From Escherichia coli (GTDB lineage: Bacteria > Pseudomonadota > Gammaproteobacteria > Enterobacterales > Enterobacteriaceae), in assembly GCF_016026235.1 (NCBI RefSeq), contig NZ_CP065613.1: a DNA stretch of 64,000 bases. One strand, 5' to 3'. Position 1 is the first letter of the stretch. Every line of letters begins with the position of its first letter. A model generated the notes under the pieces. That model saw nothing but the letters and a program-made list of their open reading frames with translations. It did not search any database and was not told the origin of the DNA. This document shows, one piece after another, positions 38,715-63,157 of the stretch. The position numbers and the translations under genes are program-made.

Positions 38715-40055
38715 ATGAGTTCTCAATTTACGACGCCTGTTGTTACTGAAATGCAGGTCATCCCAGTGGCGGGTCATGACAGTATGCTGATGAATCTGAG
38801 TGGTGCACACGCACCGTTCTTTACGCGTAATATTGTGATTATCAAAGATAATTCTGGTCACACTGGCGTAGGGGAAATTCCCGGCGGCGAGAAAATCCGT
38901 AAAACGCTGGAAGATGCGATTCCGCTGGTGGTAGGTAAAACGCTGGGTGAATACAAAAACGTTCTGACGCTGGTGCGTAATACTTTTGCCGATCGTGATG
39001 CTGGTGGGCGCGGTTTGCAGACATTTGATTTGCGTACCACTATTCATGTAGTTACCGGGATAGAAGCGGCAATGCTGGATCTGCTGGGGCAGCATCTGGG
39101 GGTAAACGTGGCATCGCTGCTGGGCGATGGTCAACAGCGTAGCGAAGTCGAAATGCTCGGTTATCTGTTCTTCGTCGGTAATCGCAAAGCCACACCGCTG
39201 CCGTATCAAAGCCAGCCGGATGACTCATGCGACTGGTATCGCCTGCGTCATGAAGAAGCGATGACGCCGGATGCGGTGGTGCGCCTGGCGGAAGCGGCGT
39301 ATGAAAAATATGGCTTCAACGATTTCAAACTGAAAGGCGGTGTACTGGCCGGGGAAGAAGAGGCCGAGTCTATTGTGGCACTGGCGCAACGCTTCCCGCA
39401 GGCGCGTATTACGCTCGATCCTAACGGTGCCTGGTCGCTGAACGAAGCGATTAAAATTGGTAAATACCTGAAAGGGTCGCTGGCTTATGCAGAAGATCCG
39501 TGTGGTGCGGAGCAAGGTTTCTCCGGGCGTGAAGTGATGGCAGAGTTCCGTCGCGCAACTGGCCTGCCGACCGCAACCAATATGATCGCCACCGACTGGC
39601 GGCAGATAGGCCATACGCTCTCCCTGCAATCCGTTGATATCCCGCTGGCGGATCCGCATTTCTGGACGATGCAAGGTTCGGTACGTGTGGCGCAAATGTG
39701 CCATGAATTTGGCCTGACCTGGGGTTCACACTCAAACAACCACTTCGATATTTCCCTGGCGATGTTTACCCATGTTGCCGCCGCTGCACTGGGTAAAATC
39801 ACCGCGATTGATACGCACTGGATTTGGCAGGAAGGCAATCAGCGCTTGACCAAAGAACCGTTTGAGATCAAAGGCGGTCTGGTTCAGGTGCCGGAAAAAC
39901 CGGGGCTGGGTGTAGAAATCGATATGGATCAAGTGATGAAAGCCCATGAGCTGTATCAGAAACACGGGCTTGGCGCGCGTGACGATGCGATGGGAATGCA
40001 GTATCTGATTCCTGGCTGGACGTTCGATAACAAGCGCCCGTGCATGGTGCGTTAA
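38715..40055 (+). CDS. gudD: Glucarate dehydratase
   Basis: 446 aa from ATG 38715 ([25 protein letters not shown]); enolase-superfamily; the track ORF adds 8 aa. Confidence 0.95.
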
Positions 40056-40178
40056 GACAGAAAACCAAAACCGGCTCTATCTGGAGCCGGCTTGAGACTG
40101 ATGCTAAACGCAAAATAGCCTGTTGTGCTATGTATCAGGTCTACATCATTTTTTAATTCATTGAATTTAATTGGTTTT

Positions 40179-40218
40179 GTAGGCCGGATAAGGCGTTAAC
40201 GCCGCATCCGGCATAAAC
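40179..40218. repeat. REP element
   Basis: gtaggccggataaggcgttaacgccgcatccggcataaac in the gudD-barA convergent intergenic region. Confidence 0.55.
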
Positions 40219-40286
40219 ACAGGCACTTTGTCACCAATCTGAAACCAGCGTCATAAAAAGCCGATTGCTACTCGACAAGACGTCCG

Positions 40287-43043
40287 TTACCCGAGAATTT
40301 TGCTGGCTTCGCGCGCTACATTATCCATCTCGTCCAACAGTTCCAGCAGCTCCGGCTCCAAATCTTCTTCTTTAGTACCGCTACGTAGCTGTTGTTCGAT
40401 CAGTTGGCAGAGATTCTTCATACGCGGCACACCGCTATAGCCGCAACTGCCATGCAGTTTATGAATCAAATCAACCAGGCCTTCCGGGTTTTCTCCAACC
40501 AGCTGTTCCTCAACTTTGTTGCGAACTTCAGGCAGGAAATCGAGTAACATTTGCAGCATATCGCGCGCTAAATCGGTTTTTCCTGCTGCCTGGCGTAGTG
40601 CCAGTTGCCAGTCGAGGGTCGCATTCGGGTTCACCACAATTTCGTTGACTTCGGGCGTCACGACGCGAGAGGAAATACCGCTGCCAGGCTTGTAGCGCAA
40701 CAACAAATTATGCAATCGCTCTTCTTCAATCGGTTTCGCCAGATAATCGCTCATCCCTGCGCCAAGCAGCTTCTCTTTTTGCCCGGCCATTGCATGCGCC
40801 GTTACCGCGATAACCGGCGTTTGTTGCTGATGGGGGAGCTGGTGGATGAGCTCGCAGGCCCGAATGCCATCCATGTCAGGCATTTGAATATCCATTAAGA
40901 TCAAATCGAACGGCATCTGTTTCGCCCGTTCAACCGCCTGATGCCCGCTATCGCAAAGTTCCACATGTTGCACCATATCTTCCAGCAATGCGCCGATAAG
41001 TTTCAGGTTAGCGGGGTTGTCATCAACTGCCATGACTGTCATTGCCAGCTTGCTTTCATCGGTTACAGGCAAAAGCGTGTTTTGTTTGTGATGACAAAAT
41101 TCCGTCAGGGCAGGCAACAGGCGCGTAGGTGTTAATGGTTTCAGCAGACACGCGCCGATACCATCTTGCTTGAGTTTTTCTGCATTGACTTGTGCATGGC
41201 AAGGAAGTGCCAGCATCAGGAAATCGGTCATCGATACCGCTTTCGCTAATCGCTCATGTTGCATTGTTAGCGGCTCGCGGAAGGTCACCGCGATGCCTAA
41301 CAACATCATGTCGTAATGCGCGGGAGGCAGCGCGGAGAACGTTGGGCTATAAACCACTTCCAGCGGCGTTTCACTTAAAATATCCAGCGTGCATTGCGCT
41401 GCTGCGGAGTTTGGTTCGACATAGGCCAGGCGCTTACCGGCGAGGCACTGGGTGGATGGCCCTTCGATAATAATGTTCGGGTTCAGATCGAGATTAATGT
41501 GGAACCAGAAAGTTGAACCGCGATTCGGCTGGCTATGGAACGAAATATCGCCGCCCATTTCATTAACCAGTTTTTGTGTAATCACCAGCCCCAGACCGGT
41601 GCCACCATGACGGCGGGAAATACTGGCATCAGCCTGTCGGAAGGCCTGGAATAAGCGCGATTGATCGCGTTCAGGAATACCAATGCCGGTATCCCGAATC
41701 TGCACTTCAATCTGCACTTTGGTATTACTCAGCGCACGTTTTTCTACCAGAATATCAATGTTGCCATTCTCGGTGAATTTAATTGCATTCCCCACCAGGT
41801 TAGTGATGATTTGCTGTAATCGCAGTGGGTCGCCGATCACGTTATCAGGCACGTCGCTTTTAATATTGAGCGTCAGTTCCAACCCTTTATCGTGAGAAGA
41901 ATGTGCCAGCAGAGTAACGACTTCATCCAGCGTGCTGCGTAGTGGGAATGGAATACTTTCCAGAATCAGCTTACCTGCTTCCAGTTTCGAGAAGTCGAGA
42001 ACATCATTAATAATTGCCAGCAAATTATTTGCCGAACGTTCAATCGTATTCAGGTGATCGCGCTGCGTTGGTGTTAATTCTGTTTTCAGCGTCAGGCGGG
42101 TAAAGCCAATAACACCATTCAGTGGTGTACGCAGTTCGTGTGACATATTTGCCAGAAACTCGGATTTAATACGCGCCGCTTCCTGGGCGCGCTTTTTCGC
42201 CAGATCTAACTCAACGTTCTGAATTTCCATCTGCTCCAGCGTTTCACGCAGATCGGACGTCGCCTGGTCGATATTGTGCTGCATCTCTTCGTGATAAGCA
42301 GCCAGCGACATTGCCATCGAGTTGATACCGTTTTTCAGCATATCCAGCTCGCCGAGCATAAATCCTTCCACCCGGCTGTCGAGTTGCCCGCGACGGATGC
42401 GGTCGACGGTATTCACCATGTTGCGAATCGGACCGGTTACATCGCGCATTAAGCGCCAGCCAAAAATAAGCGCAATACCGATACAAAACAGCATCATCAC
42501 GCTGGAAATAAAGATCTCTTTATATTGCTGCAAGCGAACCGATTTAAGATCCAGCTCAAGCGCAATATATCCCAACATATTTTGACTATTTTTGGCATCG
42601 CTACTGGGCGATTCGTCGGGGGAGTAACTCTCAGAAATAATCGGCGTGCGGAGGATCATAATATCGCCGTCACGAGTGACAGTGAGCTGGCGAGGAAACG
42701 GCACGTTGCTGCCGAGCTGCATTGATGAGGGATCAAGATGAAAATTGGAGGTGACAAAGAGTCGGTTATTTTCATCATAAACCGAAATCGCGCGAACAAT
42801 ATCGGAATGGCGACGATGCAGTACGCTTATTAACTGACCGATAGATTCGCGATTTTGCAGGCTCATGCCATATTCAGTAGAAACTGCAAGCGGCTCAATA
42901 ATGCTGGCACCGGCATCTTCCAGTTGACGCTGCAAGTCGTTATAGCGATGCACGACGAAAAAGATACTCAGCAATAAACCAATAAGGACGGTCGGTGCCA
43001 GGATCAGAATCATCATGCGTGCGCGCAGGCTGTAGTTGGTCAT
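40287..43043 (-). CDS. barA: Hybrid sensor histidine kinase BarA
   Basis: 918 aa; HisKA (SHELRTPLN), receiver and HPt regions; matches recalled BarA. Confidence 0.95.
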
Positions 43044-43099
43044 GGAGTTCCGTTATGGGACAATTAAGGTCACACTGTTAAATTGAGAAAGTCTCGCCA

Positions 43100-44401
43100 A
43101 TGGCGCAATTCTACTCTGCAAAACGACGCACGACGACGCGTCAGATCATAACCGTTTCAGTCAACGACCTCGACTCTTTTGGTCAGGGCGTGGCGCGACA
43201 TAACGGCAAAACGTTATTTATCCCCGGATTATTGCCGCAGGAAAACGCGGAAGTTGCTGTTACTGAAGATAAAAAACAGTATGCCCGCGCTAAAGTCGTA
43301 CGCCGGTTAAGCGATAGCCCGGAACGCGAAACACCACGCTGTCCTCATTTTGGCGTATGCGGCGGCTGTCAGCAACAACACGCCAGCGTGGATTTACAGC
43401 AGCGAAGCAAAAGTGCGGCACTCGCCCGATTAATGAAACACGATGTCTCTGAAGTGATCGCCGATGTTCCCTGGGGCTATCGCCGCCGCGCGCGTTTAAG
43501 TCTGAACTACTTACCGAAAACACAGCAACTTCAGATGGGGTTTCGCAAAGCGGGCTCCAGTGACATTGTCGACGTTAAACAATGCCCCATTTTAGTGCCC
43601 CAACTTGAAGCATTGCTGCCCAAAGTCAGGGCATGCCTGGGCAGCTTACAAGCTATACGCCATCTTGGTCATGTTGAACTGGTACAGGCAACCAGCGGCA
43701 CGCTGATGATTTTGCGCCATACCGCACCGCTAAGTTCGGCAGATCGCGAAAAACTGGAACGCTTTTCGCATTCTGAAGGCCTGGATCTGTATCTCGCCCC
43801 CGATAGTGAGATACTCGAAACCGTCTCTGGTGAGATGCCCTGGTATGACTCAAACGGGTTGCGCTTAACTTTTAGCCCGCGCGATTTTATTCAGGTCAAT
43901 GCGGGTGTGAACCAAAAAATGGTAGCGCGTGCGTTGGAATGGCTGGATGTGCAACCTGAAGATCGCGTACTGGATCTGTTCTGCGGTATGGGCAACTTTA
44001 CACTGCCATTGGCGAAACAAGCAGCCAGTGTGGTCGGTGTAGAAGGTGTTCCGGCGCTGGTGGAAAAAGGCCAGCAGAATGCGCGTCTTAATGGTTTACA
44101 GAATGTGACGTTTTATCACGAAAATCTTGAAGAAGATGTCACAAAGCAGCCGTGGGCGAAAAACGGCTTCGATAAAGTGTTGCTGGACCCGGCGCGAGCA
44201 GGTGCCGCAGGTGTTATGCAGCAAATTATAAAACTGGAACCTATTCGTATAGTTTATGTATCCTGTAACCCTGCAACGCTGGCTCGGGATAGCGAAGCGT
44301 TATTAAAAGCAGGATATACCATTGCGCGACTGGCGATGCTGGATATGTTCCCACACACGGGACATCTGGAATCGATGGTACTTTTCTCGCGCGTTAAATA
44401 G
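43100..44401 (+). CDS. rlmD: 23S rRNA (uracil1939-C5)-methyltransferase
   Basis: 433 aa; Fe-S cysteines [10 protein letters not shown]; matches recalled RlmD/RumA. Confidence 0.9.
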
Positions 44402-44448
44402 TTACGATTTGCCGATTTCGGCAGGTCTGGTCCCTAAAGGAGAGGACA

Positions 44449-46683
44449 ATGGTTGCGGTAAGAAGTGCACATATCAATAAGGCTGGTGAATTTGATCCGG
44501 AAAAATGGATCGCAAGTCTGGGTATTACCAGCCAGAAGTCGTGTGAGTGCTTAGCCGAAACCTGGGCGTATTGTCTGCAACAGACGCAGGGGCATCCGGA
44601 TGCCAGTCTGTTATTGTGGCGTGGTGTTGAGATGGTGGAGATCCTCTCGACATTAAGTATGGACATTGACACGCTGCGGGCGGCGCTGCTGTTCCCTCTG
44701 GCTGATGCCAACGTAGTCAGCGAAGATGTGCTGCGTGAGAGCGTCGGTAAGTCGGTCGTTAACCTTATTCACGGCGTGCGTGATATGGCGGCGATCCGCC
44801 AGCTGAAAGCGACGCACACTGATTCTGTTTCCTCCGAACAGGTCGATAACGTTCGCCGGATGTTATTGGCGATGGTCGATGATTTTCGCTGCGTGGTCAT
44901 CAAACTGGCGGAGCGTATTGCTCATCTGCGCGAAGTAAAAGATGCGCCGGAAGATGAACGCGTACTGGCGGCAAAAGAGTGCACCAATATCTACGCGCCG
45001 TTGGCGAACCGTCTTGGGATTGGGCAACTGAAATGGGAGCTGGAAGATTACTGCTTCCGTTATCTCCACCCGACCGAATACAAACGCATCGCAAAACTGC
45101 TGCATGAACGCCGTCTCGACCGCGAACACTATATCGAAGAGTTTGTCGGCCATCTGCGCGCTGAGATGAAAGCTGAAGGCGTTAAAGCTGAAGTGTATGG
45201 TCGTCCGAAACACATCTACAGCATCTGGCGTAAAATGCAGAAAAAGAACCTCGCCTTTGATGAGCTGTTTGATGTGCGTGCGGTACGTATTGTCGCCGAG
45301 CGTTTACAGGATTGCTATGCCGCACTGGGGATAGTGCACACTCACTATCGCCACCTGCCGGATGAGTTTGACGATTATGTCGCTAACCCGAAACCAAACG
45401 GTTATCAGTCTATTCATACCGTGGTTCTGGGGCCAGGTGGCAAAACCGTTGAGATCCAAATCCGCACCAAACAGATGCATGAAGATGCAGAGTTGGGTGT
45501 TGCTGCGCACTGGAAATATAAAGAGGGCGCGGCAGCTGGCGGCGCACGTTCGGGACATGAAGACCGGATTGCCTGGCTGCGTAAACTGATTGCGTGGCAG
45601 GAAGAGATGGCTGATTCCGGCGAAATGCTCGACGAAGTACGCAGCCAGGTCTTTGACGACCGGGTGTATGTCTTTACGCCGAAAGGTGATGTCGTTGATT
45701 TGCCTGCGGGATCAACGCCGCTGGACTTCGCTTACCACATCCACAGTGATGTCGGACACCGCTGCATCGGGGCAAAAATTGGCGGGCGCATTGTGCCGTT
45801 CACCTACCAGCTGCAGATGGGCGACCAGATTGAAATTATCACCCAGAAACAGCCGAACCCCAGCCGTGACTGGTTAAACCCAAACCTCGGTTACGTCACA
45901 ACCAGCCGTGGGCGTTCGAAAATTCACGCCTGGTTCCGTAAACAGGACCGTGACAAAAACATTCTGGCTGGGCGGCAAATCCTTGACGACGAGCTGGAAC
46001 ATCTGGGGATCAGCCTGAAAGAAGCAGAAAAACATCTGCTGCCGCGTTACAACTTTAATGATGTCGACGAGTTGCTGGCGGCGATTGGTGGCGGGGATAT
46101 CCGTCTCAATCAGATGGTGAACTTCCTGCAATCGCAATTTAATAAGCCGAGTGCCGAAGAGCAGGACGCCGCCGCGCTGAAGCAACTTCAGCAAAAAAGC
46201 TACACGCCGCAAAACCGCAGTAAAGATAACGGTCGCGTGGTAGTCGAAGGTGTTGGCAACCTGATGCACCACATCGCGCGCTGCTGCCAGCCGATTCCTG
46301 GAGATGAGATTGTCGGCTTCATTACCCAGGGGCGCGGTATTTCAGTACACCGCGCCGATTGCGAACAACTGGCGGAACTGCGCTCCCATGCGCCAGAACG
46401 CATTGTTGACGCGGTATGGGGTGAGAGCTACTCCGCCGGATATTCGCTGGTGGTCCGCGTGGTGGCTAATGATCGTAGTGGGTTGTTACGTGATATCACG
46501 ACCATTCTCGCCAACGAGAAGGTGAACGTGCTTGGCGTTGCCAGCCGTAGCGACACCAAACAGCAACTGGCAACCATCGACATGACCATTGAGATTTACA
46601 ACCTGCAGGTGCTGGGCCGCGTGCTGGGTAAACTCAACCAGGTGCCGGATGTTATCGACGCGCGTCGGTTGCACGGGAGTTAG
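44449..46683 (+). CDS. relA: GTP pyrophosphokinase (ppGpp synthetase I)
   Basis: 744 aa; matches recalled RelA. Confidence 0.95.
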   Translation: MVAVRSAHINKAGEFDPEKWIASLGITSQKSCECLAETWAYCLQQTQGHPDASLLLWRGVEMVEILSTLSMDIDTLRAALLFPLADANVVSEDVLRESVGKSVVNLIHGVRDMAAIRQLKATHTDSVSSEQVDNVRRMLLAMVDDFRCVVIKLAERIAHLREVKDAPEDERVLAAKECTNIYAPLANRLGIGQLKWELEDYCFRYLHPTEYKRIAKLLHERRLDREHYIEEFVGHLRAEMKAEGVKAEVYGRPKHIYSIWRKMQKKNLAFDELFDVRAVRIVAERLQDCYAALGIVHTHYRHLPDEFDDYVANPKPNGYQSIHTVVLGPGGKTVEIQIRTKQMHEDAELGVAAHWKYKEGAAAGGARSGHEDRIAWLRKLIAWQEEMADSGEMLDEVRSQVFDDRVYVFTPKGDVVDLPAGSTPLDFAYHIHSDVGHRCIGAKIGGRIVPFTYQLQMGDQIEIITQKQPNPSRDWLNPNLGYVTTSRGRSKIHAWFRKQDRDKNILAGRQILDDELEHLGISLKEAEKHLLPRYNFNDVDELLAAIGGGDIRLNQMVNFLQSQFNKPSAEEQDAAALKQLQQKSYTPQNRSKDNGRVVVEGVGNLMHHIARCCQPIPGDEIVGFITQGRGISVHRADCEQLAELRSHAPERIVDAVWGESYSAGYSLVVRVVANDRSGLLRDITTILANEKVNVLGVASRSDTKQQLATIDMTIEIYNLQVLGRVLGKLNQVPDVIDARRLHGS

Positions 46684-46697
46684 GCAGAAATTTGCTC

Positions 46698-46745
46698 GTA
46701 TCTACAATGTAGATTGATATATACTGTATCTACATATGATAGCGG
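46698..46745. promoter_or_regulatory. mazEF promoter/operator with palindromic sequence
   Basis: atctacaatgtagat and tatctacatat palindromic blocks just upstream of mazE, consistent with the described MazE/MazF autoregulatory operator. Confidence 0.5.
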
Positions 46746-46760
46746 TTTGAGGAAAGGGTT

Positions 46761-47009
46761 ATGATCCACAGTAGCGTAAAGCGTTGGGGAAATTCACCGG
46801 CGGTGCGGATCCCGGCTACGTTAATGCAGGCGCTCAATCTGAATATTGATGATGAAGTGAAGATTGACCTGGTGGATGGCAAATTAATTATTGAGCCAGT
46901 GCGTAAAGAGCCCGTATTTACGCTTGCTGAACTGGTCAACGACATCACGCCGGAAAACCTCCACGAGAATATCGACTGGGGAGAGCCGAAAGATAAGGAA
47001 GTCTGGTAA
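46761..47009 (+). CDS. mazE: Antitoxin MazE
   Basis: 82 aa; matches recalled MazE. Confidence 0.95.
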
Positions 47010-47344
47010 TGGTAAGCCGATACGTACCCGATATGGGCGATCTGATTTGGGTTGATTTTGACCCGACAAAAGGTAGCGAGCAAGCTGGACATCGTCCAGC
47101 TGTTGTCCTGAGTCCTTTCATGTACAACAACAAAACAGGTATGTGTCTGTGTGTTCCTTGTACAACGCAATCAAAAGGATATCCGTTCGAAGTTGTTTTA
47201 TCCGGTCAGGAACGTGATGGCGTAGCGTTAGCTGATCAGGTAAAAAGTATCGCCTGGCGGGCAAGAGGAGCAACGAAGAAAGGAACAGTTGCCCCAGAGG
47301 AATTACAACTCATTAAAGCCAAAATTAACGTACTGATTGGGTAG
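47009..47344 (+). CDS. mazF: mRNA interferase toxin MazF
   Basis: 111 aa; start overlaps the mazE stop; matches recalled MazF. Confidence 0.95.
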   Translation: MVSRYVPDMGDLIWVDFDPTKGSEQAGHRPAVVLSPFMYNNKTGMCLCVPCTTQSKGYPFEVVLSGQERDGVALADQVKSIAWRARGATKKGTVAPEELQLIKAKINVLIG

Positions 47345-47414
47345 TGTTACTAACTCACTTCTATTCTGGTCACAGGTTTCCACCTGACAGACCCGCAATT
47401 TTCAGGACAATTCA

Positions 47415-48206
47415 ATGAATCAAATCGACCGTTTGCTCACTATTATGCAGCGCCTGCGCGATCCGGAAAACGGCTGCCCGTGGGATAAAGAGCAGACATT
47501 TGCCACCATTGCGCCTTACACCCTTGAAGAAACCTACGAAGTGCTGGACGCCATCGCCCGTGAAGATTTTGACGATCTTCGCGGTGAACTGGGCGATCTG
47601 CTATTCCAGGTGGTGTTTTACGCGCAAATGGCTCAGGAAGAAGGGCGCTTTGACTTTAATGATATTTGCGCTGCTATTAGCGATAAATTAGAGCGTCGCC
47701 ATCCGCATGTTTTTGCTGATAGTTCTGCCGAAAACAGTAGTGAAGTGCTTGCCCGTTGGGAGCAAATCAAAACCGAAGAGCGCGCGCAGAAAGCGCAGCA
47801 TTCGGCGCTGGACGATATTCCTCGTAGTTTACCGGCTTTAATGCGGGCGCAAAAAATCCAGAAACGTTGCGCCAACGTTGGCTTCGACTGGACGACGCTT
47901 GGCCCGGTGGTTGATAAAGTCTACGAAGAGATCGACGAGGTGATGTACGAGGCGCGGCAGGCTGTTGTCGACCAGGCTAAACTGGAGGAGGAAATGGGGG
48001 ACCTGCTGTTTGCCACGGTTAATCTGGCTCGCCATTTAGGGACGAAAGCAGAAATCGCATTGCAAAAAGCGAACGAAAAATTCGAGCGTCGTTTTCGCGA
48101 AGTGGAGCGTATTGTTGCCGCGCGTGGACTGGAAATGACAGGTGTTGACCTCGAAACAATGGAAGAAGTCTGGCAACAGGTAAAACGGCAGGAAATTGAT
48201 CTCTAA
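47415..48206 (+). CDS. mazG: Nucleoside triphosphate pyrophosphohydrolase MazG
   Basis: 263 aa; matches recalled MazG. Confidence 0.9.
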   Translation: MNQIDRLLTIMQRLRDPENGCPWDKEQTFATIAPYTLEETYEVLDAIAREDFDDLRGELGDLLFQVVFYAQMAQEEGRFDFNDICAAISDKLERRHPHVFADSSAENSSEVLARWEQIKTEERAQKAQHSALDDIPRSLPALMRAQKIQKRCANVGFDWTTLGPVVDKVYEEIDEVMYEARQAVVDQAKLEEEMGDLLFATVNLARHLGTKAEIALQKANEKFERRFREVERIVAARGLEMTGVDLETMEEVWQQVKRQEIDL

Positions 48207-48418
48207 GGGAATTACGCGGTCAAGCGCCATTTGTGTCATTTTTTAAATGACAAGCGCTTGATTTGCGTCAAAAACATTTACCCCAAAGGGGCTATTTTCT
48301 CACTCCTGATTTCAATAGTGCGCTGGCGAAGAGGAGGGATAATGAAAGTTTGTGGCACAGGTCATGTTCGGGTATACTGCTTTCCCGTCCTGGTTATTCC
48401 ATCGTCTTTTCAACCTAA

Positions 48419-50071
<1,653 letters not shown>

Positions 50072-50143
50072 GTAAAAAAGTTAGAACGGCAACGCGTACC
50101 CTGGGTACGCGTTGTTTGTCTGGAGTTTCAGTTTAACTAGTGA

Positions 50144-51457
<1,314 letters not shown>

Positions 51458-51475
51458 GACTGACTTTATCTGATT

Positions 51476-51508
51476 TAAAAATGCCAGCCTCCGGGCTGGC
51501 ATTTTTTA
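51476..51508. terminator. Rho-independent terminator (bidirectional) after eno
   Basis: aaaaaTGCCAGCCtccgGGCTGGCAtttttta: 8-bp GC-rich stem flanked by A and T runs. Confidence 0.8.
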
Positions 51509-51516
51509 TGGTTGAG

Positions 51517-52410
51517 TTACCAGCGGCCGGATGCGCCGCCACCTCCAGAAGAACCGCCACCGCCGCTAAATCCGCCGCCACTTGAGCCTCCACCGGAAGA
51601 GGATGAAGAAGAACCTTTTCTTGAAGCTCTTTCTTTACTGAGTTTTTTGTATTTGGCGCGTAGCTTTTTATTGACGATAAGCCAAAAAATAACCAGTGGT
51701 ACGATCGCAAAAGGCGTTAACATACCGCAGGCAACGATTAAATTGGTCCATGGTCCTGGCTCGGCAACATAGAGGAATACCATCCCGTAAATGGCGCCAG
51801 TGAGAGTGATCTAGGGTAAATTCGACGGATCGGTAAAAACAATAAAATATGAAAGTACCGCCAGCAATATAATTACAGCAAGCGATAATGGAATAGGGGG
51901 ATTGATACTGTAATAATCCCCCCTGTCTTCCGGTAATTCACCATTTAACAGAAGCGCGCCGATATTTTCGCTTGCCAGTGTTAATCCACCCATCAGGTCA
52001 TCACTTTTGAAGGCAGGGATCAATATATCCCTGATAATCTTCGCCGCTTGCAGGTCGGTAACCACCCCTTCCAGCCCGTAGCCAACCTCAATACGAACAG
52101 CATGATCCTCCTAGGCAACCAGAAGTAAAATACCATCGTTTCTCTGCTTATCTCCCAGTTTCCAGCTATCAAAAACCCTTGTAGCATATTGTTCAATGGA
52201 ATCGTCTCCGGTGGACGGCACTACTAATACAGCGACCTGCGCCCGTGTTTTATGTGTAATATCCTGCAGTTGCTGTGTCAGTGATTGTTGTTCAGAAGTG
52301 CTTAACGTACCAGTAATATCGGTCACCTGTTGGCGCAGTTCCGGCACAGCAATTTGCTGGGCAAGCCCAGGAAGGCACCACAAAGTGAATAGAATAAAGA
52401 TTAAGCGCAT
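51517..52410 (-). pseudogene. ygcG: TPM-domain protein (YgcG-like paralog 3) with two in-frame amber stops
   Basis: One continuous frame (signal peptide MRLIFILFTLWCLPGLA, TPM domain, TM region, Gly/Ser-rich tail ...GGGGSSGGGGASGRW) is broken by TAG at 52111-52113 and 51811-51813 (plus strand CTA); the first aligns to a conserved Trp in the paralogs (LLLVAWQDH). Confidence 0.7.
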
Positions 52411-52415
52411 TACGA

Positions 52416-53564
52416 TCACCAACGGCCGGATGAACCGCCGCCTCCTGAAGAACCGCCACCACCGCGGAAAGAATTTCTCGACGAAGAGCGAGAATGAGCA
52501 TTACGATTCCCCGTTTTCCTGTTGCTTTTTTCTCCTGACCCCAGCTTAAGATTGCCAGTAAATTTGGCCACAATGATCAGCAGAACGATGCCAGCAATGG
52601 TTATTGGGCCGATAAAATGATCAATTAACCCAATAATTGTTGAGATGAATGCAATATCTTTATTACTGGCGAACACCAGGCACCATCCCACAATAATTAT
52701 CAGCATCACGACAAACAATGAATTTCGTCCTGATTCACGAACCTGCGGAGTCTTCTTTTGTTTTTTCACTTTAGCGTTTTTATTTTTTGGGGGCAGCATC
52801 ATAGGAAATACGCGGCACATATTAAAAACTACCGCGAGACGCTGCTTGCAGGTTGTTGCTAACAATAAACTAAAACAAACGACCGATACCCGCCGAATGA
52901 TGACATCGTCCTGAAAGGAGAAAAACCAGACCATAGGGGTAATCATCGATATCATCCATATGCCACGCCGTGGGCGGCTGGCAAATCGCCAGAGGACAAC
53001 GATGGCAACGATCATCAGCAGTGTCCAGGCAAGACATGGCAGCGAACGTTGCGGATTAGCAAACAGATGATTGGCTAAAGCATCCAAAGGGCTAAGGTTC
53101 GCTTTGATATGGGTAAACTGTGCGATGCTTTCAATTCCGCCCGTTAATCCAGCAAAGAGATTGTTTTTTTCGAATTCTGGCTGCATATGGTAACGAACAA
53201 TTTGCGCAGCTTGTTCCGGCGGCAACATCTCTTCCAGTCCATGTCCAATCTTCATTGACGCCAGCCCTTCCGGCCAAACGACGAGAATTAAGATACCTTC
53301 GCCATATCGCTTCTCTCCAACGGGTTTCCAGTGATATACCCCGTAGCTCTGCGAGGCTGCAAGTTTAATGTTTTTGCCCCCTGTTGTCGGCGTAACCAAC
53401 ACGGCCACCTGGAAGTGGTTTTGCTGCTCGAGAGTCTGTAATTGTTGATTTAAAGCACTTTGTTCTTCTGTCGTTAATGTCCCGGTTAAGTCAGTCACTG
53501 AAGGCAATCGTTCAGCGAATACCTGAAAACCGCATAGCATCAGAAGTAAGAGAAAAATACGCAT
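52416..53564 (-). CDS. TPM-domain membrane protein (paralog 2), Gly/Ser-rich C-terminus
   Basis: 382 aa; signal peptide, TPM-like N-terminal domain, several hydrophobic segments, tail ...RGGGGSSGGGGSSGRW. Confidence 0.75.
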   Translation of the reverse strand: MRIFLLLLMLCGFQVFAERLPSVTDLTGTLTTEEQSALNQQLQTLEQQNHFQVAVLVTPTTGGKNIKLAASQSYGVYHWKPVGEKRYGEGILILVVWPEGLASMKIGHGLEEMLPPEQAAQIVRYHMQPEFEKNNLFAGLTGGIESIAQFTHIKANLSPLDALANHLFANPQRSLPCLAWTLLMIVAIVVLWRFASRPRRGIWMISMITPMVWFFSFQDDVIIRRVSVVCFSLLLATTCKQRLAVVFNMCRVFPMMLPPKNKNAKVKKQKKTPQVRESGRNSLFVVMLIIIVGWCLVFASNKDIAFISTIIGLIDHFIGPITIAGIVLLIIVAKFTGNLKLGSGEKSNRKTGNRNAHSRSSSRNSFRGGGGSSGGGGSSGRW

Positions 53565-53578
53565 ATCAATTCCTTTTG

Positions 53579-54472
53579 TTACCAGCGCCCGGAAGCGCCA
53601 CCGCCACCAGATGAACCGCCACCACCGCTAAAATTGTCATTGTCGAATGAAGAGGATGACGATGATGAATAGTGGGAGGAAGAATTGCTTCTTGTATGGC
53701 GTGATGGCTGGTTGGCATCACGCATCGAATCTCGAACCTTTTTGCCGAAGGGGGTAAAAGCGATGGCAACTGCCAGGAACGGTGTGGCGAAGCAGAGTAA
53801 TGTTGCGAGTACTCCCCAGCTTCCGCTGAAACCTGCTATAGGTAAAACAAAGGCCAGTACAATAGCTGCGAAACAAATTACTCCCAGCGTTTTGATATAT
53901 CCTCTGGCAGAAATAAACGTCAGTACTATCGCCCAGACTAACAAAGCCCACCAACCGCTAAAGGGTAAAGGGTGATCGGTCGGTGTTATCGTTGCTAAAT
54001 TATTCCCCGTCAGACGACTTTCAAGATCGCTGATCCCCTTTTGTAAACCGACAGCAAGATCGCCCTTTTTAAACGCTGGAATAATACTGTTGCGTATAAT
54101 TTGCCCGGACTGCGCATCCGTAATAATACCTTCCAGTCCGTAACCAATTTCAATACGCACGGTATGATCCTGCCAGGCGACTAACAGTAGAACGCCATCA
54201 TCGCGGTCTTTATCACCCGGTTTCCAGCTATCGAATACCCGCGTTGCGTACTGCTCGATGCTTTCATCGCCTGTTGTTTCAACCACTAACACGACCAACT
54301 GTGCGTGGTTTTTTTGCGTCAGGGCTTTGATCTGGTTGGTCAGGGTGTTTACTTCGCTATTTGTTAATGTGCCGGTTAAGTCATTCACATACCTGGGTGA
54401 TTCAGGTACTGGAATTTGTGTGGCAAACACAGATGAACAGAAGAAAGCCATAAGGAAGATAAAATTTCGCAT
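53579..54472 (-). CDS. TPM-domain membrane protein (paralog 1), Gly/Ser-rich C-terminus
   Basis: 297 aa from ATG 54472 (MRNFIFLMAFFCSSVFA signal peptide; GGGGAAG-type SD upstream); tail ...SGGGGSSGGGGASGRW. Confidence 0.75.
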   Translation of the reverse strand: MRNFIFLMAFFCSSVFATQIPVPESPRYVNDLTGTLTNSEVNTLTNQIKALTQKNHAQLVVLVVETTGDESIEQYATRVFDSWKPGDKDRDDGVLLLVAWQDHTVRIEIGYGLEGIITDAQSGQIIRNSIIPAFKKGDLAVGLQKGISDLESRLTGNNLATITPTDHPLPFSGWWALLVWAIVLTFISARGYIKTLGVICFAAIVLAFVLPIAGFSGSWGVLATLLCFATPFLAVAIAFTPFGKKVRDSMRDANQPSRHTRSNSSSHYSSSSSSSFDNDNFSGGGGSSGGGGASGRW

Positions 54473-54485
54473 AGAACTTCCCCGC

Positions 54486-55088
54486 TTAATGAGCACTAGC
54501 ATTCTGGCTAAAATCTATTGTTGGTGCTTTACTCACAGCGGCGACATCATCCGGCAAATAATTTTTCTTTGGTGTGTAATCCATGACCTTTGCGGTTAAC
54601 ACAGCGGGGAATTTGCGGATAGTGACATTATATTGTTCAATGGCTTTAATATATCTTCCTCGCGCAACGGCAATCCGATTTTCACTTCCTTCAAGCTGTA
54701 CCATTAAATTTTGATAGAGTTCCTGAGATTTTAACTCAGGGTAACGCTCACTAATTATCGTTAACTGACCGAGAGTGCGAGTCACCTGCGCTTGAGCCTG
54801 TTGCCAGGCTTGTAATTTTTGTTCATCTCCCGGAGTTTGCTGAAGATCGCTACTGGCGCGATTAGCCTGGCTACGAGCCAATGTTACGGCTTCCAGTACA
54901 TCTCGTTCATGGCTGGAATAACCTTTAATACTGGCGACAAGATTAGGAATAAGATAGGCGCGACGTTGATATTGATTCAATACCTCAGACCAGGAGGCGT
55001 TAACCTGCTCATCATAGGTTTGAATATCGTTATATCCACAGCCTGATAAATTGAAAATAAATATAATTACGATGAATATTCTGAGCAT
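54486..55088 (-). CDS. lemA: LemA-family membrane protein
   Basis: 200 aa; N-terminal hydrophobic segment with lipobox-like LSGCG; LemA-like body; first gene of an operon with the TPM genes. Confidence 0.75.
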   Translation of the reverse strand: MLRIFIVIIFIFNLSGCGYNDIQTYDEQVNASWSEVLNQYQRRAYLIPNLVASIKGYSSHERDVLEAVTLARSQANRASSDLQQTPGDEQKLQAWQQAQAQVTRTLGQLTIISERYPELKSQELYQNLMVQLEGSENRIAVARGRYIKAIEQYNVTIRKFPAVLTAKVMDYTPKKNYLPDDVAAVSKAPTIDFSQNASAH

Positions 55089-55260
55089 GTTTAAATCCCT
55101 TTTAATTAATTCCTTAAAACATAATACTCTGCTTCATTTTATTCTTTATGATCTAATCCACTTTTTGCCATAAACCTGCCTGTAACAGAATGTTAATAAG
55201 ACATGATTGTTGTGGCAGGATCTGCAATAATTAACAATTATCCACTTCACAGAGAATGCT

Positions 55261-55932
55261 ATGCAGTACCCGATTAACGAGATGTTCCAGACCCTGCAAG
55301 GTGAGGGTTACTTTACCGGCGTCCCCGCCATTTTTATTCGTTTACAGGGATGCCCGGTTGGCTGTGCCTGGTGCGACACCAAACACACCTGGGAAAAGCT
55401 TGAGGATCGGGAAGTCTCCCTTTTCAGCATTCTGGCGAAGACCAAAGAGAGTGATAAGTGGGGGGCGGCGAGCAGTGAAGACTTGCTGGCTGTCATTGGT
55501 CGCCAGGGATATACCGCGCGGCATGTGGTGATTACGGGTGGTGAGCCTTGCATTCATGATTTGCTGCCACTGACTGACCTGCTCGAAAAGAACGGTTTTA
55601 GCTGCCAGATCGAAACCAGTGGTACTCATGAAGTACGCTGTACACCGAATACCTGGGTTACCGTATCGCCAAAGCTGAACATGCGCGGCGGCTATGAAGT
55701 GTTGTCACAGGCACTGGAGCGAGCCAACGAAATCAAGCATCCAGTGGGACGCGTACGTGATATTGAAGCACTGGATGAACTTTTGGCGACGCTGACCGAT
55801 GATAAACCGCGAGTCATTGCACTGCAGCCGATTAGCCAAAAGGATGATGCCACACGTTTGTGCATTGAAACCTGCATTGCGCGTAATTGGCGTTTGTCGA
55901 TGCAAACCCATAAATATTTAAATATTGCCTGA
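55261..55932 (+). CDS. queE: 7-carboxy-7-deazaguanine synthase (radical SAM)
   Basis: 223 aa; cysteine motif CPVGCAWCDT; matches recalled QueE/YgcF. Confidence 0.9.
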   Translation: MQYPINEMFQTLQGEGYFTGVPAIFIRLQGCPVGCAWCDTKHTWEKLEDREVSLFSILAKTKESDKWGAASSEDLLAVIGRQGYTARHVVITGGEPCIHDLLPLTDLLEKNGFSCQIETSGTHEVRCTPNTWVTVSPKLNMRGGYEVLSQALERANEIKHPVGRVRDIEALDELLATLTDDKPRVIALQPISQKDDATRLCIETCIARNWRLSMQTHKYLNIA

Positions 55933-56059
55933 TTAAACATTTATAAGCGTTATAAATGGGGGGAACCTGTAAAGACTTCTACTCATTTATATTCTTTGTC
56001 GCCTCTGAAAAAGCTCCATTTTGCCCATCCTGGACTAATCATTATCATTCTCTACAAAT

Positions 56060-56270
56060 TCTGTGGCGTTAATTTTTTGTTGGAGTGAAAATTATTGCGG
56101 TAAAGTTTGGTAGATTTTAGTTTGTATAGAATTATTTTAAATATTTACCTTTTTAATCAATGAGTTAAGTGCTCTTTAACATAATGGATGTGTTGTTTGT
56201 GTGATACTGTAAAGTTGGTAGATTGTGACTGGCTTAAAAAATCATTAATTAATAATAGGTTATGTTTAGA
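56060..56270 (+). promoter_or_regulatory. CRISPR leader (AT-rich) of the type I-E array
   Basis: AT-rich sequence ending ...CTGGCTTAAAAAATCATTAATTAATAATAGGTTATGTTTAGA immediately before repeat 1, as in E. coli I-E leaders. Confidence 0.7.
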
Positions 56271-56523
56271 GAGTTCCCCGCGCCAGCGGGGATAAACCGA
56301 TGACAAAAATTTGCAGGTGCTGGCAGAGGCCGAGTTCCCCGCGCCAGCGGGGATAAACCGTCAGGTGGGATGGTCAGCGCGAAACACACGCCGAGTTCCC
56401 CGCGCCAGCGGGGATAAACCGAGCGCGCAGTTATCAGCCGCGACAACATGAAAGAGTTCCCCGCGCCAGCGGGGATAAACCGCTCATATACGTTACAGCG
56501 TCGGAAATGGAGGCGAGTTCCCC

Positions 56524-57815
56524 TGAGGAATCCCCAGAAAACAAGACAGGCATAGTGAGATGTGATCTAATTGATTGTGCTAACAATTTCAAGGAGATCA
56601 CCACTATGCCTGCACGTTCATTATGCCAAAATTTCCTTAACAACATACTGGCCCCTTTGCATCTTTACCGTCAAAAATCACTGATTGACGCAACTAATGC
56701 TGTAATAAATGGCGCTTCCCTCACACTTACCAGTATCGGGCGTCATTTAACCGGTACGGCATCAGTTAAAAACAAAATAAAGCGGGTGGATCGACTGTTG
56801 GGGAATCGACATTTGCAAAATGAGGTTTCCACCATTTTTCAGCGAATTACCCAAAAGATTACGCGGGGAATGTCTCGTGTTGTGATACTCATTGACTGGA
56901 GTGCTTATCATGCCTCTCGTTTTCAGCTTTTGCGGGCAAGCCTGGCATGTGACGGGCGTTCTTTACCGTTGATGAGTTGTGTCGTTCCATCATCACAGAC
57001 AGCGAATGCAGATGTACATGAGCGTTTTCTGGAATCGCTTGCTGAGTGCTTTTCCCCCGGGACTGATGTCATTGTTATTACAGATGCCGGTTTTCAGGGG
57101 CGATGGTTCCAACAGCTCCGCTCCCGTGGCTGGACCTATATTTGCCGGGTACTGGGCAATCATTATTACAATGTTGGTAATGGCTGGGAAAAGGTGTCGG
57201 ACTCAGGCACAAAAGCATCAACGACAGCAATTTATTTAGGTGAAGGCCTGCTGGGTCGAGATAAAAATGCACAACATGAAGGGCATTTTTATCTTTATAA
57301 AAGTAAGCCTAAAGGTCGTAGATTTAAACGCTCGAAGGAAAGAGCAACCAGACCATCGGTGACGGCTAAAGCTCGTACTGCCGGGAAATCACCATGGTTT
57401 ATTTTCACAAACAGTACTGAGTTCTCGCCAAAACAGGTAATGAAATTATACAGCCGTAGAATGCAAATTGAGCAAAATTTCAGGGATGAAAAAAATCCTC
57501 GCTGGGGATTTGGACTACGGTTTGGTGCCAGTCATTCATCCGGGCGGGTCACGGTATTGAGTCTGATCGCAACATTAGCCAGTATCATTATGTGGTTAAG
57601 CGGTTTCAGCCTGGAAAACAAAGGGATACATCATAAATATCAGGCAAATACAGTGAAGCACAGGCGAGTCATCTCGTTATTAAAACTGGCGGAGAATGTG
57701 ATTCGACATTCTCCACTCATACTAAACACACTGTCACTTGACGCAGGGCTGAAAGTTCTACAGCAACGGTATACCAATATGATAATGGTTTACTAAATTT
57801 TCTGGGGATCCCTCA
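56524..57815 (+). mobile_element. IS4-family (IS10-like) insertion sequence, copy 1, inside a CRISPR repeat
   Basis: ~1.29 kb; imperfect terminal inverted repeats CTGAGG(A/G)ATCCCCAGAAAA; flanked by a direct duplication of 10-12 bp of repeat sequence (GCGAGTTCCCC); one transposase ORF. Confidence 0.85.
56606..57796 (+). CDS. IS4-family DDE transposase (IS10-like)
   Basis: 396 aa from ATG 56606 (AAGGAG SD); shares recalled IS10 transposase motifs (KRVDRLLGNRHL, LIDWS, ITDAGF, YSRRMQIEQNFRD, YQANTV); the track ORF start at 56507 is read-through from spacer 4. Confidence 0.8.
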   Translation: MPARSLCQNFLNNILAPLHLYRQKSLIDATNAVINGASLTLTSIGRHLTGTASVKNKIKRVDRLLGNRHLQNEVSTIFQRITQKITRGMSRVVILIDWSAYHASRFQLLRASLACDGRSLPLMSCVVPSSQTANADVHERFLESLAECFSPGTDVIVITDAGFQGRWFQQLRSRGWTYICRVLGNHYYNVGNGWEKVSDSGTKASTTAIYLGEGLLGRDKNAQHEGHFYLYKSKPKGRRFKRSKERATRPSVTAKARTAGKSPWFIFTNSTEFSPKQVMKLYSRRMQIEQNFRDEKNPRWGFGLRFGASHSSGRVTVLSLIATLASIIMWLSGFSLENKGIHHKYQANTVKHRRVISLLKLAENVIRHSPLILNTLSLDAGLKVLQQRYTNMIMVY

Positions 57816-58316
57816 GGCGAGTTCCCCGCGCCAGCGGGGATAAACCACCATATAACCCGTTATCTCTTTCTCAAGTTTTTATATTAGCAGTACTTGTAAT
57901 AAGCAACATATCCACGTAACACCTCATGTTCAAAATAGTTCTCCATGCCAGAGAAGTTCACAATTATCGATACAAAAAATTAAGTTTAATCAAAGTATTA
58001 TTTGTATGATTCTTAAATCATTAAGAAATTTTAATATATTATTTTTTTAATATTAATTAATGCCTGTTAATTTTTGCTTAAGTATAACAGTGTATTTTTT
58101 AAGCTTGTTATTCATTGATTAAGTAATAAATCTGGAAGTTTGTCTTTGTTTTGAGGCTAATGAGTGGTTTTACATAACCGCCTCTATACGCTGTTGATGA
58201 ATAGTTCTTATGAATAAAGATATTCAGTTCATACTTTAAGTGAAAATTGATAAAGTGCGATTCGTATTGTCTTTTATTCTAAAGACATCGAGTGTAGTTA
58301 ATATTCCTTGTAAAAA

Positions 58317-58376
58317 CAGGGATAAACCGAACTAGTTAAAGTTTTTATTATGTTCCCCGCGTCAGCGGGGATAACC
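58317..58376 (+). repeat. Degenerate CRISPR repeat remnant
   Basis: cagggataaaccg, then ~22 bp, then GTTCCCCGCGTCAGCGGGGATAACC (diverged from the canonical repeat), preceded by ~450 bp of AT-rich sequence. Confidence 0.55.
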
Positions 58377-58423
58377 ATTCAGGTATGTTCAGGCCGGGCT
58401 GTTTCCCGCCCGGCCTTCCTCAC

Positions 58424-59902
58424 TTACGCATTCGACCAGCTCTGGATCGAATCCGCATTCCCCAATTCCCCATGCATCACTTCATACGATTTTTTCAGGA
58501 TCACATCAGTATGTTTGGTTAGGTCTTTGAAAATGCCTTTATTCATCGCGTCGTAGCGTTTGGCATTGCTCTCAACAGGCATAAAGATATCTTTCACGCG
58601 AACCATTTTGTCGACAGCCGTTGCGTAATCCGGGTATAGCCCCAGACCTACCGCCGTATTGATCGCTGCCCCCAGACTTGCACAACCGTTAATGGCGTTA
58701 CGGCGTGCCGGAAGGTTGAACACGTCGGCAAAAATTTGCATAAACAGATCGCTGTTCGAACCGCCGCCAGTAATGATCACATGCTTTGCAAAGTGATTCA
58801 TTTCATTACACATATTGTCGTAATTGTTCTTCAGCGTCAGCGCCACGCTTTCCAGTATCGAACGATATATCCATGCGTAATCCATGCTGGAATCAAAGCC
58901 GATCATAATCCCGCGTTTGTACGGTTCCCACGGATTGGTCAGCCAGTCCAGCACCGTCATCAGCCCATTACAGCCAGGTGGCACACTAGAGGCTTTCTTG
59001 TTGAGTAAATCTTCCGGTGAAAGATCCTGAGCCCTGGCATCCTGAATTAACGACTCGCCTAGCATGTCGCGCAGCCAGCTCACCGTCCACATGCCTTTGC
59101 GAATACCGTAACCTTCATACAGCAATGTTTGCGGAATAGAAGACATAATCGGCCAGTACGCCACCGGATCTTTCGGCAGTGCTTTGCCGTTCATCATCAA
59201 TGCGATGTAAGTGCCAAGAGAAATTACCGCAGTTTCATCATCCAGTAATCCGGCCCCCAGAGCTTCTACCGGTTTATCACTGGTGGTACAAACAACCGGC
59301 AGTCCTGCCGGGAAATGTGTCGCCAGTGCGGCTTGTGGTGTGATATGTCCGAGGACGGTGCCAGGCATTTGCACATCAAACAGCATATGACGGGGGATAT
59401 TAAACTTCTCCATTACCGCAGCATCTTCGCTCCATGCCCAGCTCTTATAATCCACCGGCCACTGACCAAAATAGTTGGCGATATTGTCTTTAAACTCGCC
59501 GGTTAAGCGATGCGTCAGATAACCCGAAAAAGAGGTGACATAGGCCACGTCAGGATTAGTGTGTTCGTAGGGACGCGTTACGCGTGCATCCTGCCAGCTA
59601 ATCAATGGCGCAGCTGGCGTGCCATCGGCTTTCAATAACGCACGGCAGCAACGGATGGATCCCAGACCAATACCGACAATATCTTCTTTATTCCCGGCAA
59701 ACTGACTCATCAAATCGTGACCGGCAAAACATAATGATGCCCATAAATCGTCGTCAGGATGTTCTGCGGTATCGGCATCTGGCGTGTGCATCGGCTGCAA
59801 TAAGCCTTTACCTTCGCAAACCACATTACCTTCCAGATCGTACATCACCACTTTTGTGCTCTGACTTCCGCCATCAATCCCTATGATGTATTTTTTCGAC
59901 AT
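58424..59902 (-). CDS. ygcE: FGGY-family sugar kinase YgcE
   Basis: 492 aa; MSKKYIIGIDGGSQSTKVVMYDLEG...; glycerol/xylulose-kinase-like. Confidence 0.85.
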   Translation of the reverse strand: MSKKYIIGIDGGSQSTKVVMYDLEGNVVCEGKGLLQPMHTPDADTAEHPDDDLWASLCFAGHDLMSQFAGNKEDIVGIGLGSIRCCRALLKADGTPAAPLISWQDARVTRPYEHTNPDVAYVTSFSGYLTHRLTGEFKDNIANYFGQWPVDYKSWAWSEDAAVMEKFNIPRHMLFDVQMPGTVLGHITPQAALATHFPAGLPVVCTTSDKPVEALGAGLLDDETAVISLGTYIALMMNGKALPKDPVAYWPIMSSIPQTLLYEGYGIRKGMWTVSWLRDMLGESLIQDARAQDLSPEDLLNKKASSVPPGCNGLMTVLDWLTNPWEPYKRGIMIGFDSSMDYAWIYRSILESVALTLKNNYDNMCNEMNHFAKHVIITGGGSNSDLFMQIFADVFNLPARRNAINGCASLGAAINTAVGLGLYPDYATAVDKMVRVKDIFMPVESNAKRYDAMNKGIFKDLTKHTDVILKKSYEVMHGELGNADSIQSWSNA

Positions 59903-59928
59903 GATTTTTCTCCTGTAATTTTCCTGGC

Positions 59929-61983
59929 TTACTTGCTGCTAGCTATTGCGGGGGCGCTATCAGCAGTACGAATTTTTTGGAACAGCAAAAAGGTAAAGAC
60001 GATCACCATGCCGAGCGCCGCCATGCCCATCAGCCACATATTGCGGTAGGCTTCTGCTGCGGGCAGGGTGTCTTGCCAGTGGCCGATAATTGGGTAAACG
60101 AAGACATCCGGCAGGAATCCTATCACCGAACAAATACCTACCGTGGTGCCCATAATGTAAGACGGTGTTCTCGCTTCGCCGGGGCAGGCCCAGTACAGTC
60201 CACGTGAGGCGTAGCAGGTGAATCCCAGCAGTAAAATCAGGCCAATCCCCATTGCGACCGATTGCGGGTTAGAGTTGGTAACAAGCAGGGCAGTCAGTGC
60301 CAGCAGGCCGATGATGGAAAGGATTTGGATCACGCGGGTAGGGGATTTCACTTTGCTGTAGGTGGTGATTATGCCGCCAAGTGGGCCGCACAGCGCGCGG
60401 AATATTTTGTTGATCACAATCCCCATGTAGCTCGCCGCCACCAGCGACATGCCGTACATTTCGGTCAGATAGTTGGTGGAGGTAATGACTCCAACTTATT
60501 GATAGTGTTTTATGTTCAGATAATGCCCGATGACTTTGTCATGCAGCTCCACCGATTTTGAGAACGACAGCGACTTCCGTCCCAGCCGTGCCAGGTGCTG
60601 CCTCAGATTCAGGTTATGCCGCTCAATTCGCTGCGTATATCGCTTGCTGATTACGTGCAGCTTTCCCTTCAGGCGGGATTCATACAGCGGCCAGCCATCC
60701 GTCATCCATATCACCACGTCAAAGGGTGACAGCAGGCTCATAAGACGCCCCAGCGTCGCCATAGTGCGTTCACCGAATACGTGCGCAACAACCGTCTTCC
60801 GGAGACTGTCATACGCGTAAAACAGCCAGCGCTGGCGCGATTTAGCCCCGACATAGCCCCACTGTTCGTCCATTTCCGCGCAGACGATGACGTCACTGCC
60901 CGGCTGTATGCGCGAGGTTACCGACTGCGGCCTGAGTTTTTTAAGTGACGTAAAATCGTGTTGAGGCCAACGCCCATAATGCGGGCAGTTGCCCGGCATC
61001 CAACGCCATTCATGGCCATATCAATGATTTTCTGGTGCGTACCGGGTTGAGAAGCGGTGTAAGTGAACTGCAGTTGCCATGTTTTACGGCAGTGAGAGCA
61101 GAGATAGCGCTGATGTCCGGCGGTGCTTTTGCCGTTACGCACCACCCCGTCAGTAGCTGAACAGGAGGGACAGCTGATAGAAACAGAAGCCACTGGAGCA
61201 CCTCAAAAACACCATCATACACTAAATCAGTAAGTTGGCAGCATCACCGTTGGTGGAGTAACTCAGAATGGCGTAGATGGTGAAGACACCAAAAATCACC
61301 ATGCTGCAATACCAGGTGGTGCTGATGCGCAAAACGGCCAGGATGTCGCTAAGCTGGAATGATTGTTTTTCTTCGTTATTGGCACTGCGCAGGTTGTTGT
61401 TATCGCTAACAAAAAACCAGCACAGAATCCCCAACAAGATGTAAACCACACTATAGATGATAATGACCGTTTTCAGGCTGGTGCTGTCATCCGGTGCAAA
61501 GCGAGAAAAAACCCACATGGTAAACACTGCCAGCGACATTACACCGACGCCGCGCAGCCCTTCCATCCAGCCCATAATTTTCCCTTGCTCGCTATGATCG
61601 CCAAGCAACGAGGCGGCTTTAATCGACACCGACCACAGCATTAAAATCGTCGTTATCGCAAATGCGACCTGAATACAGAGCATTACCCACAGCGGTGGAT
61701 ACGTTGCCATTAACAGACCCAGTAATCCGGTAATGATCATCGCGGAAGTAATCATTTTGCGATGTGAGAATTTATCGGCAATAACGCCGCTGGGGGCATA
61801 AAGAATAATAGCTGCAATACCAAAGGTACTCATTATTAAACCTATCTCGGTATTGCTGAATCCCATAAATTTCGCCATGGGAATTTGATAAATATAACGT
61901 AAATAAGCCAGGTCGAAACTAACGCCGCCGCTAAAACTAATTATCGCGAGGGTTATCCAACGGCGATATGAGTTGTGTTGCAT
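59929..61983 (-). pseudogene. yqcE: MFS transporter YqcE-like, disrupted by IS1
   Basis: N-terminal part 61249-61983 and C-terminal part 59929-60480 are in the same reading frame across a 768-bp IS1 plus 9-bp duplication; together ~425 aa. Confidence 0.8.
60481..61248 (-). mobile_element. IS1: IS1 insertion sequence (insA 60918-61193, insB 60496-60999)
   Basis: 768 bp; ends GGTAATGACTCCAACTTATTGAT (plus strand) and reverse complement of GGTGATGCTGCCAACTTACTGAT; InsA ([23 protein letters not shown]...) and InsB ORFs; 9-bp target duplication GTTGGTGGA at 60472-60480 and 61249-61257. Confidence 0.95.
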
Positions 61984-62234
61984 ATCGTATTCCCATTTGT
62001 AATAGACAAAAAAAAGAGAAAAGTAAGCCGCCCTTTCAGGTGGATTACTTTTCTCAGGTCTCTAGTAATTGAAATAATAAATAACATGGAAAGCAGAGGT
62101 GTTGTGTGAGAGTAATCACGCTTCTGCTTTTTAAAACTATTTGATAATGCGAATATCACACTGTGATTACGATCACATTAGCAGTTATGTCCTTATGCTA
62201 AAAATTATCTCCAGTTACCAGAGATAATGAGAAA

Positions 62235-62278
62235 GGTAACTTCCCTCTCGCGGGGGAAGTTACCTTTCTTTTTTTTTT
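62235..62278 (+). terminator. Hairpin plus T-tract in the ygcW 5' region (terminator- or attenuator-like)
   Basis: GGTAACTTCCCtctcgcGGGGAAGTTACC (11-bp perfect arms) followed by tttcttttttttttt, ending ~25 bp before the ygcW ATG. Confidence 0.5.
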
Positions 62279-62302
62279 GCCTTACGGAAATTGGAGCTAA
62301 CT

Positions 62303-63088: not shown

Positions 63089-63157
63089 TCCATAACGGTG
63101 GTTTCTGTTTTCTCTTATTAATGATTATTCCATTTTTATTATCAGGAAGGAATTACT

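Follow-up and report, generated by a model that had tools for sequence, protein, structure and literature searches.

The window, by which we mean the whole 64,000-nucleotide stretch of Escherichia coli DNA analysed here, carries a toxin–antitoxin gene pair next to relA, in a region in which several other genes are broken. This raises the question of whether the pair is an ordinary, complete mazEF module with its own operator, and whether its intactness in such surroundings reveals anything about the forces that act on it.

Identity and layout of the gene pair

The antitoxin gene, mazE, lies at 46761-47009 on the + strand and encodes a protein of 82 amino acids, whose N-terminal part is a DNA-binding domain of the AbrB/SpoVT swapped-hairpin type and whose disordered C-terminal tail binds MazF. 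The toxin gene, mazF, which encodes an ACA-specific endoribonuclease of 111 amino acids from the MazF/PemK family (CcdB/MazF fold), follows on the same strand at 47009-47344. Both the sequence and the list of open reading frames place the antitoxin first in a bicistronic arrangement with overlapping frames. The overlap amounts to a single base within the TAATG at 47007-47011, where the TAA of mazE (47007-47009) shares its last letter with the ATG of mazF (47009-47011); the overlapping stop and start described in the initial annotation are thus real. Two Shine-Dalgarno-like elements can be read from the + strand, GAGGA at 46749-46753, 7 nt 5' of the mazE ATG, and AAGGAAG at 46995-47001, 7 nt 5' of the mazF ATG. 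The second of these is embedded in the 3' end of mazE, a position that would allow translational coupling of mazF.

The pair had been described as an intact type II mazEF module, for which an alignment with the K-12 genes was the suggested check and a frameshift or stop the suggested counter-evidence. The description proved correct at every level at which it was compared. The two genes correspond to b2783 (mazE) and b2782 (mazF) of K-12 MG1655 with 100% nucleotide identity each, the alignment with that strain contains no frameshift or stop in either of them, and mazE, mazF and the spacer between mazF and mazG are all exact substrings of the K-12 sequence. The encoded proteins are identical to those of known structures (82/82 residues of MazE to PDB 1mvf_D, and 111/111 residues of MazF to PDB 3nfc_A). 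They also match the expected families, both in Pfam (PF04014, MazE_antitoxin, with 52.9 bits for MazE, and PF02452, PemK_toxin, with 84.8 bits for MazF) and among the NCBIfam equivalogs, where MazE scores 196.2 bits against NF007312 (cutoff 113) and MazF 227.4 bits against NF007386 (cutoff 120). As read from the sequence, MazF retains its catalytic residues E24, R29 and T52. MazE likewise retains K7, R8, W9, N11 and R16, the residues that contact DNA (PMC4333400), and a count of ACA sites gave two in mazE and nine in mazF, matching the numbers of Nikolic et al. 2018 (PMC5888573).

Comparison with known systems leads to the same assignment. The mazEF locus of E. coli K-12 (chpAI/chpAK; b2783/b2782) has the same genes, one-base overlap, c-a-b operator sites, relA and mazG flanks, ACA counts and antisense RNA interval; it differs from the window by an A/C substitution at 46686, outside the operator, and by synonymous-level differences in relA and mazG. 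The chpBIK system (ChpS/ChpB) and the plasmid systems pemIK and parD kis-kid belong to the same Pfam families (MazE_antitoxin and PemK_toxin) and share the antitoxin-first order, and the toxins ChpB, PemK and Kid are, like MazF, sequence-specific endoribonucleases. These are distant paralogues only: the NCBIfam models for ChpS and ChpB score 34.6 and 55.2 bits on the window pair, short of their cutoffs of 101 and 129, and the E value for Kid is 7.6e-09 as against 1.9e-73 for MazF. None of the sequence evidence runs contrary to the canonical reading, and the locus is almost certainly the canonical chromosomal mazEF (chpA) type II toxin–antitoxin module in its relA-mazE-mazF-mazG arrangement. 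It is accordingly a locus already known, and the reference example of its kind; mazEF was the first chromosomal toxin–antitoxin system to be described.

An intact pair among broken genes

On its 5' side the pair is preceded by relA (44449..46683, + strand), which encodes a GTP pyrophosphokinase of 744 amino acids with the Pfam domains HD_4, RelA_SpoT, TGS and ACT. The gene ends at 46683 and is separated from mazE by 77 nt, in agreement with the original placement of mazEF just downstream of relA. On the other side, a spacer of 70 nt leads to mazG (47415..48206, + strand; 263 amino acids, Pfam PF03819), which encodes an NTP pyrophosphohydrolase. RelA and MazG are both 100% identical to their K-12 counterparts. 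Within relA, the segment 44895-45189 contains a cluster of approximately 25 synonymous-type mismatches to K-12 within 300 bp, and the next 3 kb are nearly K-12-identical; the cluster looks like the boundary of a recombination patch, across which the RelA protein has nonetheless stayed 100% identical.

Much of the window is in similarly good order. Positions 1-51598 are collinear with K-12 at 98.9% identity and with five single-base indels only, the 55 K-12 proteins mapped onto the window show nearly all genes to be full-length, and the genes around mazEF (barA, rlmD, relA, mazG, pyrG, eno) are undamaged, with products 99-100% identical to the K-12 proteins. Four genes of about 58 are broken (gudX, a TPM-domain gene, yqcE and ygcU), all of them at least 4 kb from mazEF. 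The initial annotation had spoken of a region in which several other genes are decaying, and this holds for the window as a whole but not for the immediate neighbours of mazEF, which are intact.

The lesions themselves are of several kinds. The glucarate dehydratase-related gene gudX (37355-38694) has suffered a 1-nt deletion, relative to K-12, in a CCC run at 38536-38538, which leaves residues 1-395 and 396-446 in different frames; judged by its sequence it is a probable pseudogene, and the adjoining gudD and gudP are intact. The first TPM-domain gene (51517-52419, - strand) has two in-frame stops when compared with an intact orthologue. An IS1 copy at 60484-61250, with InsA and InsB open reading frames and a terminal inverted repeat GGTAATGACTCCAACTTATTGATAGTG from 60484, splits yqcE at about residue 243-245, and an IS4-like ISEc60 copy at 63602-64000, which runs off the window, truncates ygcU after residue 148. 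The other ISEc60 copy (~56505-57827) is located beside a small CRISPR array (56271-56523), so that the window holds at least three IS copies. The element, annotated as ISEc60 in E. coli records, is a rare one for the species (165-267 of 5426 genomes) but multi-copy in a few EIEC-type strains. This part of the window is also unusual in its gene content: at 51517-55088 the K-12 genes ygcG/yqcG are replaced by lemA and three TPM-domain genes, as in some other E. coli (for example ETEC6335), and any single complete RefSeq E. coli genome covers at most 81% of positions 51000-64000. Taken with the IS1 and ISEc60 copies and the pseudogenes, this limited coverage hints at a source of the Shigella or EIEC type. 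The RecB protein encoded in the window has exact matches in two NCBI assemblies (GCA_000805835.1 and GCA_031665325.1), and the yqcE::IS1 junction had no match in a collection with one genome per species.

The mazEF locus itself is widespread, though by no means universal. Of 5426 complete E. coli genomes, 5425 match an 851-bp stretch around it (46600-47450) in its flanks, and many show 100% identity to it. In 4415 of these genomes, as in K-12, the pair is annotated as mazE/mazF in the order relA-mazEF-mazG. In the other group of about 1010 of the 5425 (~19%; EC958 is an example) the flanks alone match, mazEF is absent and relA is directly followed by mazG. To place the boundaries we used an end-anchored comparison with EC958, which replaced a MAFFT alignment whose gap placement against that genome was misleading. 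The mazEF-specific segment so defined is 697 bp long (46684..47380, + strand): homology to EC958 breaks off immediately past the relA stop codon and starts again 34 nt upstream of the ATG of mazG.

In the empty allele of EC958, 61 unrelated base pairs take the place of 46684-47380 and fold into a strong hairpin (z = -4.9). This segment (685-745 of the EC958 segment compared) consists of a hairpin with a 12-bp stem followed by a second stem, and may represent an ancestral relA terminator or attenuator that was replaced by the cassette. Empty sites of this kind are found in phylogroup-B2-type E. coli such as EC958 and UTI89, which have the same flanks and the same 34 nt before mazG but carry the 61-bp hairpin segment instead of mazEF (PMC7167474). 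Both the presence/absence polymorphism of mazEF and its interpretation as an insertion into a relA-mazG operon have already been published (PMC7167474).

With these data in hand, we considered whether mazEF is kept intact by selection, for addiction or phage defence, in an otherwise decaying Shigella/EIEC-like genome. The four inactivated genes and the IS copies in the window would fit such a view, as would the complete lack of substitutions in mazEF relative to K-12, compared with 0.85% over positions 38700-51500 of the window. The low divergence is, however, a regional feature, as only 2 mismatches occur in the 3 kb of 48500-51500, and the lesions are too sparse to make the survival of two short genes informative. 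Approximately six disruptive events in 64 kb correspond to ~0.05 expected in 585 bp, and the pair would thus be intact by chance with a probability of ~95%. Because an intact pair is expected at this lesion density, its intactness says nothing on selection, and the contrast with the decaying surroundings, which had been considered noteworthy, is without weight: to find 585 bp intact beside a few broken genes is what the null hypothesis predicts, and not a sign of selection. The cassette is, moreover, dispensable, since it is missing from about 1010 of the 5425 E. coli genomes. All in all, we consider maintenance by selection unlikely.

Operator and transcription of the locus

The spacer between relA and mazE contains the palindromic operator that had been postulated, and here a comparison of motifs gives a precise answer. 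The c, a, b and cab oligonucleotides used by Zorzini et al. 2015 in their MazE-binding measurements (PMC4333400) all match the window exactly. The mazEF operator/promoter region, or 'cab' fragment, extends over 46695..46744 (+ strand) and comprises three sites for MazE dimers: c (46698-46716), whose first base is also where the feature had initially been taken to begin, a (46714-46727), which contains ATATAT, and b (46719-46737). The region is rich in symmetrical elements, namely the inverted repeats ATCTACA/TGTAGAT (46700-46706 and 46708-46714) and ATGTAGAT/ATCTACAT (46707-46714 and 46728-46735) and the palindromes ATATAT (46717-46722) and CATATG (46733-46738). The arms ATCTACA, TGTAGAT and ATCTACAT together form an alternating palindrome, in which the middle arm pairs with either of the outer two.

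This symmetry exceeds what the base composition of neighbouring letters would produce, as the 77-nt spacer has three 7-mer inverted-repeat pairs, whereas 5000 dinucleotide shuffles averaged 0.22 and reached three or more in 1.4% of cases. The operator is also conserved. When six E. coli lineages were aligned (the window, K-12 and O157:H7, together with three strains that are more divergent), the 45 nt from 46696 to 46740 were invariant and six variable sites were spread over the 32 nt that make up the rest of the spacer; by our own calculation, the chance of six random sites all missing the 45-nt core is ~0.004. A scan for promoter consensus sequences returned weak 9-of-12 candidates only, TAGGCA-16-TACAAT at 46681-46708 and ATGATA-18-TATGAT at 46736-46765, the latter overlapping the start codon.

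The only difference from K-12 in the locus is found at 46686, 3 nt past the end of relA and 9 nt before the operator fragment begins, where the window has A and K-12, O157:H7 and the three other lineages have C; several STEC isolates with a 100% match to the 851-bp stretch carry the same A. It is conceivable that this substitution upstream of the operator, or changes elsewhere (for example in proteases), has left the genes intact but silent or non-functional in the source strain. The variant nevertheless falls in none of the mapped MazE sites, no change affects the coding sequences, the ribosome-binding sites or the operator, and the same 851-bp allele is present at 100% identity in many E. 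coli isolates, all of which makes a silent locus highly improbable.

The notion that the palindromes form a relA transcription terminator or some other RNA-level structure, and not a protein-binding operator, is scarcely credible: inverted repeats directly after a stop codon do occupy the usual place of a terminator, and E. coli genomes without mazEF do have a strong hairpin there, but the a/b arms are 1 nt apart, which leaves no room for an RNA loop, the b/c stem, 8 bp long and AT-rich, has no T-run after it, the same sequence binds MazE in vitro (PMC4333400), no terminator-like site was found on the + strand between 46400 and 47500, and the RNA of the spacer is no more stably folded than its shuffles (z = 0.18). 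The last two results in particular argue for palindromes that serve as binding sites at the level of DNA, as expected of a mazEF operator.

The RNA of the mazF-mazG spacer is not unusually stable either (fold z = -0.10). Because terminators are absent on both sides, read-through from relA into mazEF and onwards into mazG is possible, and mazEF can presumably also be transcribed in this way. Co-transcription of relA-mazEFG has been reported (PMC7167474), and the absence of terminators and stable folds from the spacers is consistent with it.

Transcription from the opposite strand is likely to involve the antisense RNA aMEF (K-12 b4844), which we mapped to 46650..47049 (- strand) by collinearity with K-12 ameF (2911051-2911450). 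At this mapped position, aMEF starts in codon 14 of mazF, covers mazE and the operator in antisense orientation and reaches into the 3' end of relA, and its interval differs from K-12 solely at 46686. A search of 46000-48000 against Rfam families at E <= 1 gave no match, and aMEF is without an Rfam family. It has been reported to stimulate the expression of mazEF (PMC8749433).

Predicted regulation and significance

Since the sequence is identical to that of the studied locus, we infer that the published mechanism applies here and that the module is active in the source strain. The mazEF promoter would be repressed by MazE dimers bound to the operator, which MazE-MazF complexes would bind more tightly, and a high MazF:MazE ratio would relieve the repression. 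This agrees with the published behaviour of the system, in which MazE dimers occupy three sites and MazF boosts their binding as long as the ratio is moderate but relieves it once the ratio is high (PMC4333400, PMC5888573). MazE would be labile, as a substrate for degradation by Lon and ClpAP, and MazF stable; degradation of MazE by Lon and Clp proteases has been reported (PMC8749433). Upon a fall in MazE synthesis, free MazF dimers would then cut single-stranded RNA at ACA, the targets including their own mRNA with its nine sites in mazF and two in mazE, and translation and growth would come to a halt. The antisense RNA that starts inside mazF would modulate expression on top of this circuit. 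Cleavage at ACA by MazF, neutralisation by MazE and the proteolytic lability of MazE are expected to hold for the products of the window, as these properties were measured on identical proteins (PMC5888573, PMC4333400).

What the module does for the cell is disputed in the literature, where the proposals range from stress response and growth arrest to programmed death, exclusion of phage P1, or a selfish inserted cassette. The confirmation is of use for annotation, as it anchors the window as the relA-mazEFG-pyrG-eno region of E. coli/Shigella. It is decidedly unlikely that the K-12-identical mazEF is actively maintained, through addiction or phage defence and not by chance, in an IS-laden and gene-decaying genome of the Shigella/EIEC type; if this were true, the integrity of mazEF across Shigella lineages would constitute a natural test of selection on chromosomal toxin–antitoxin systems.
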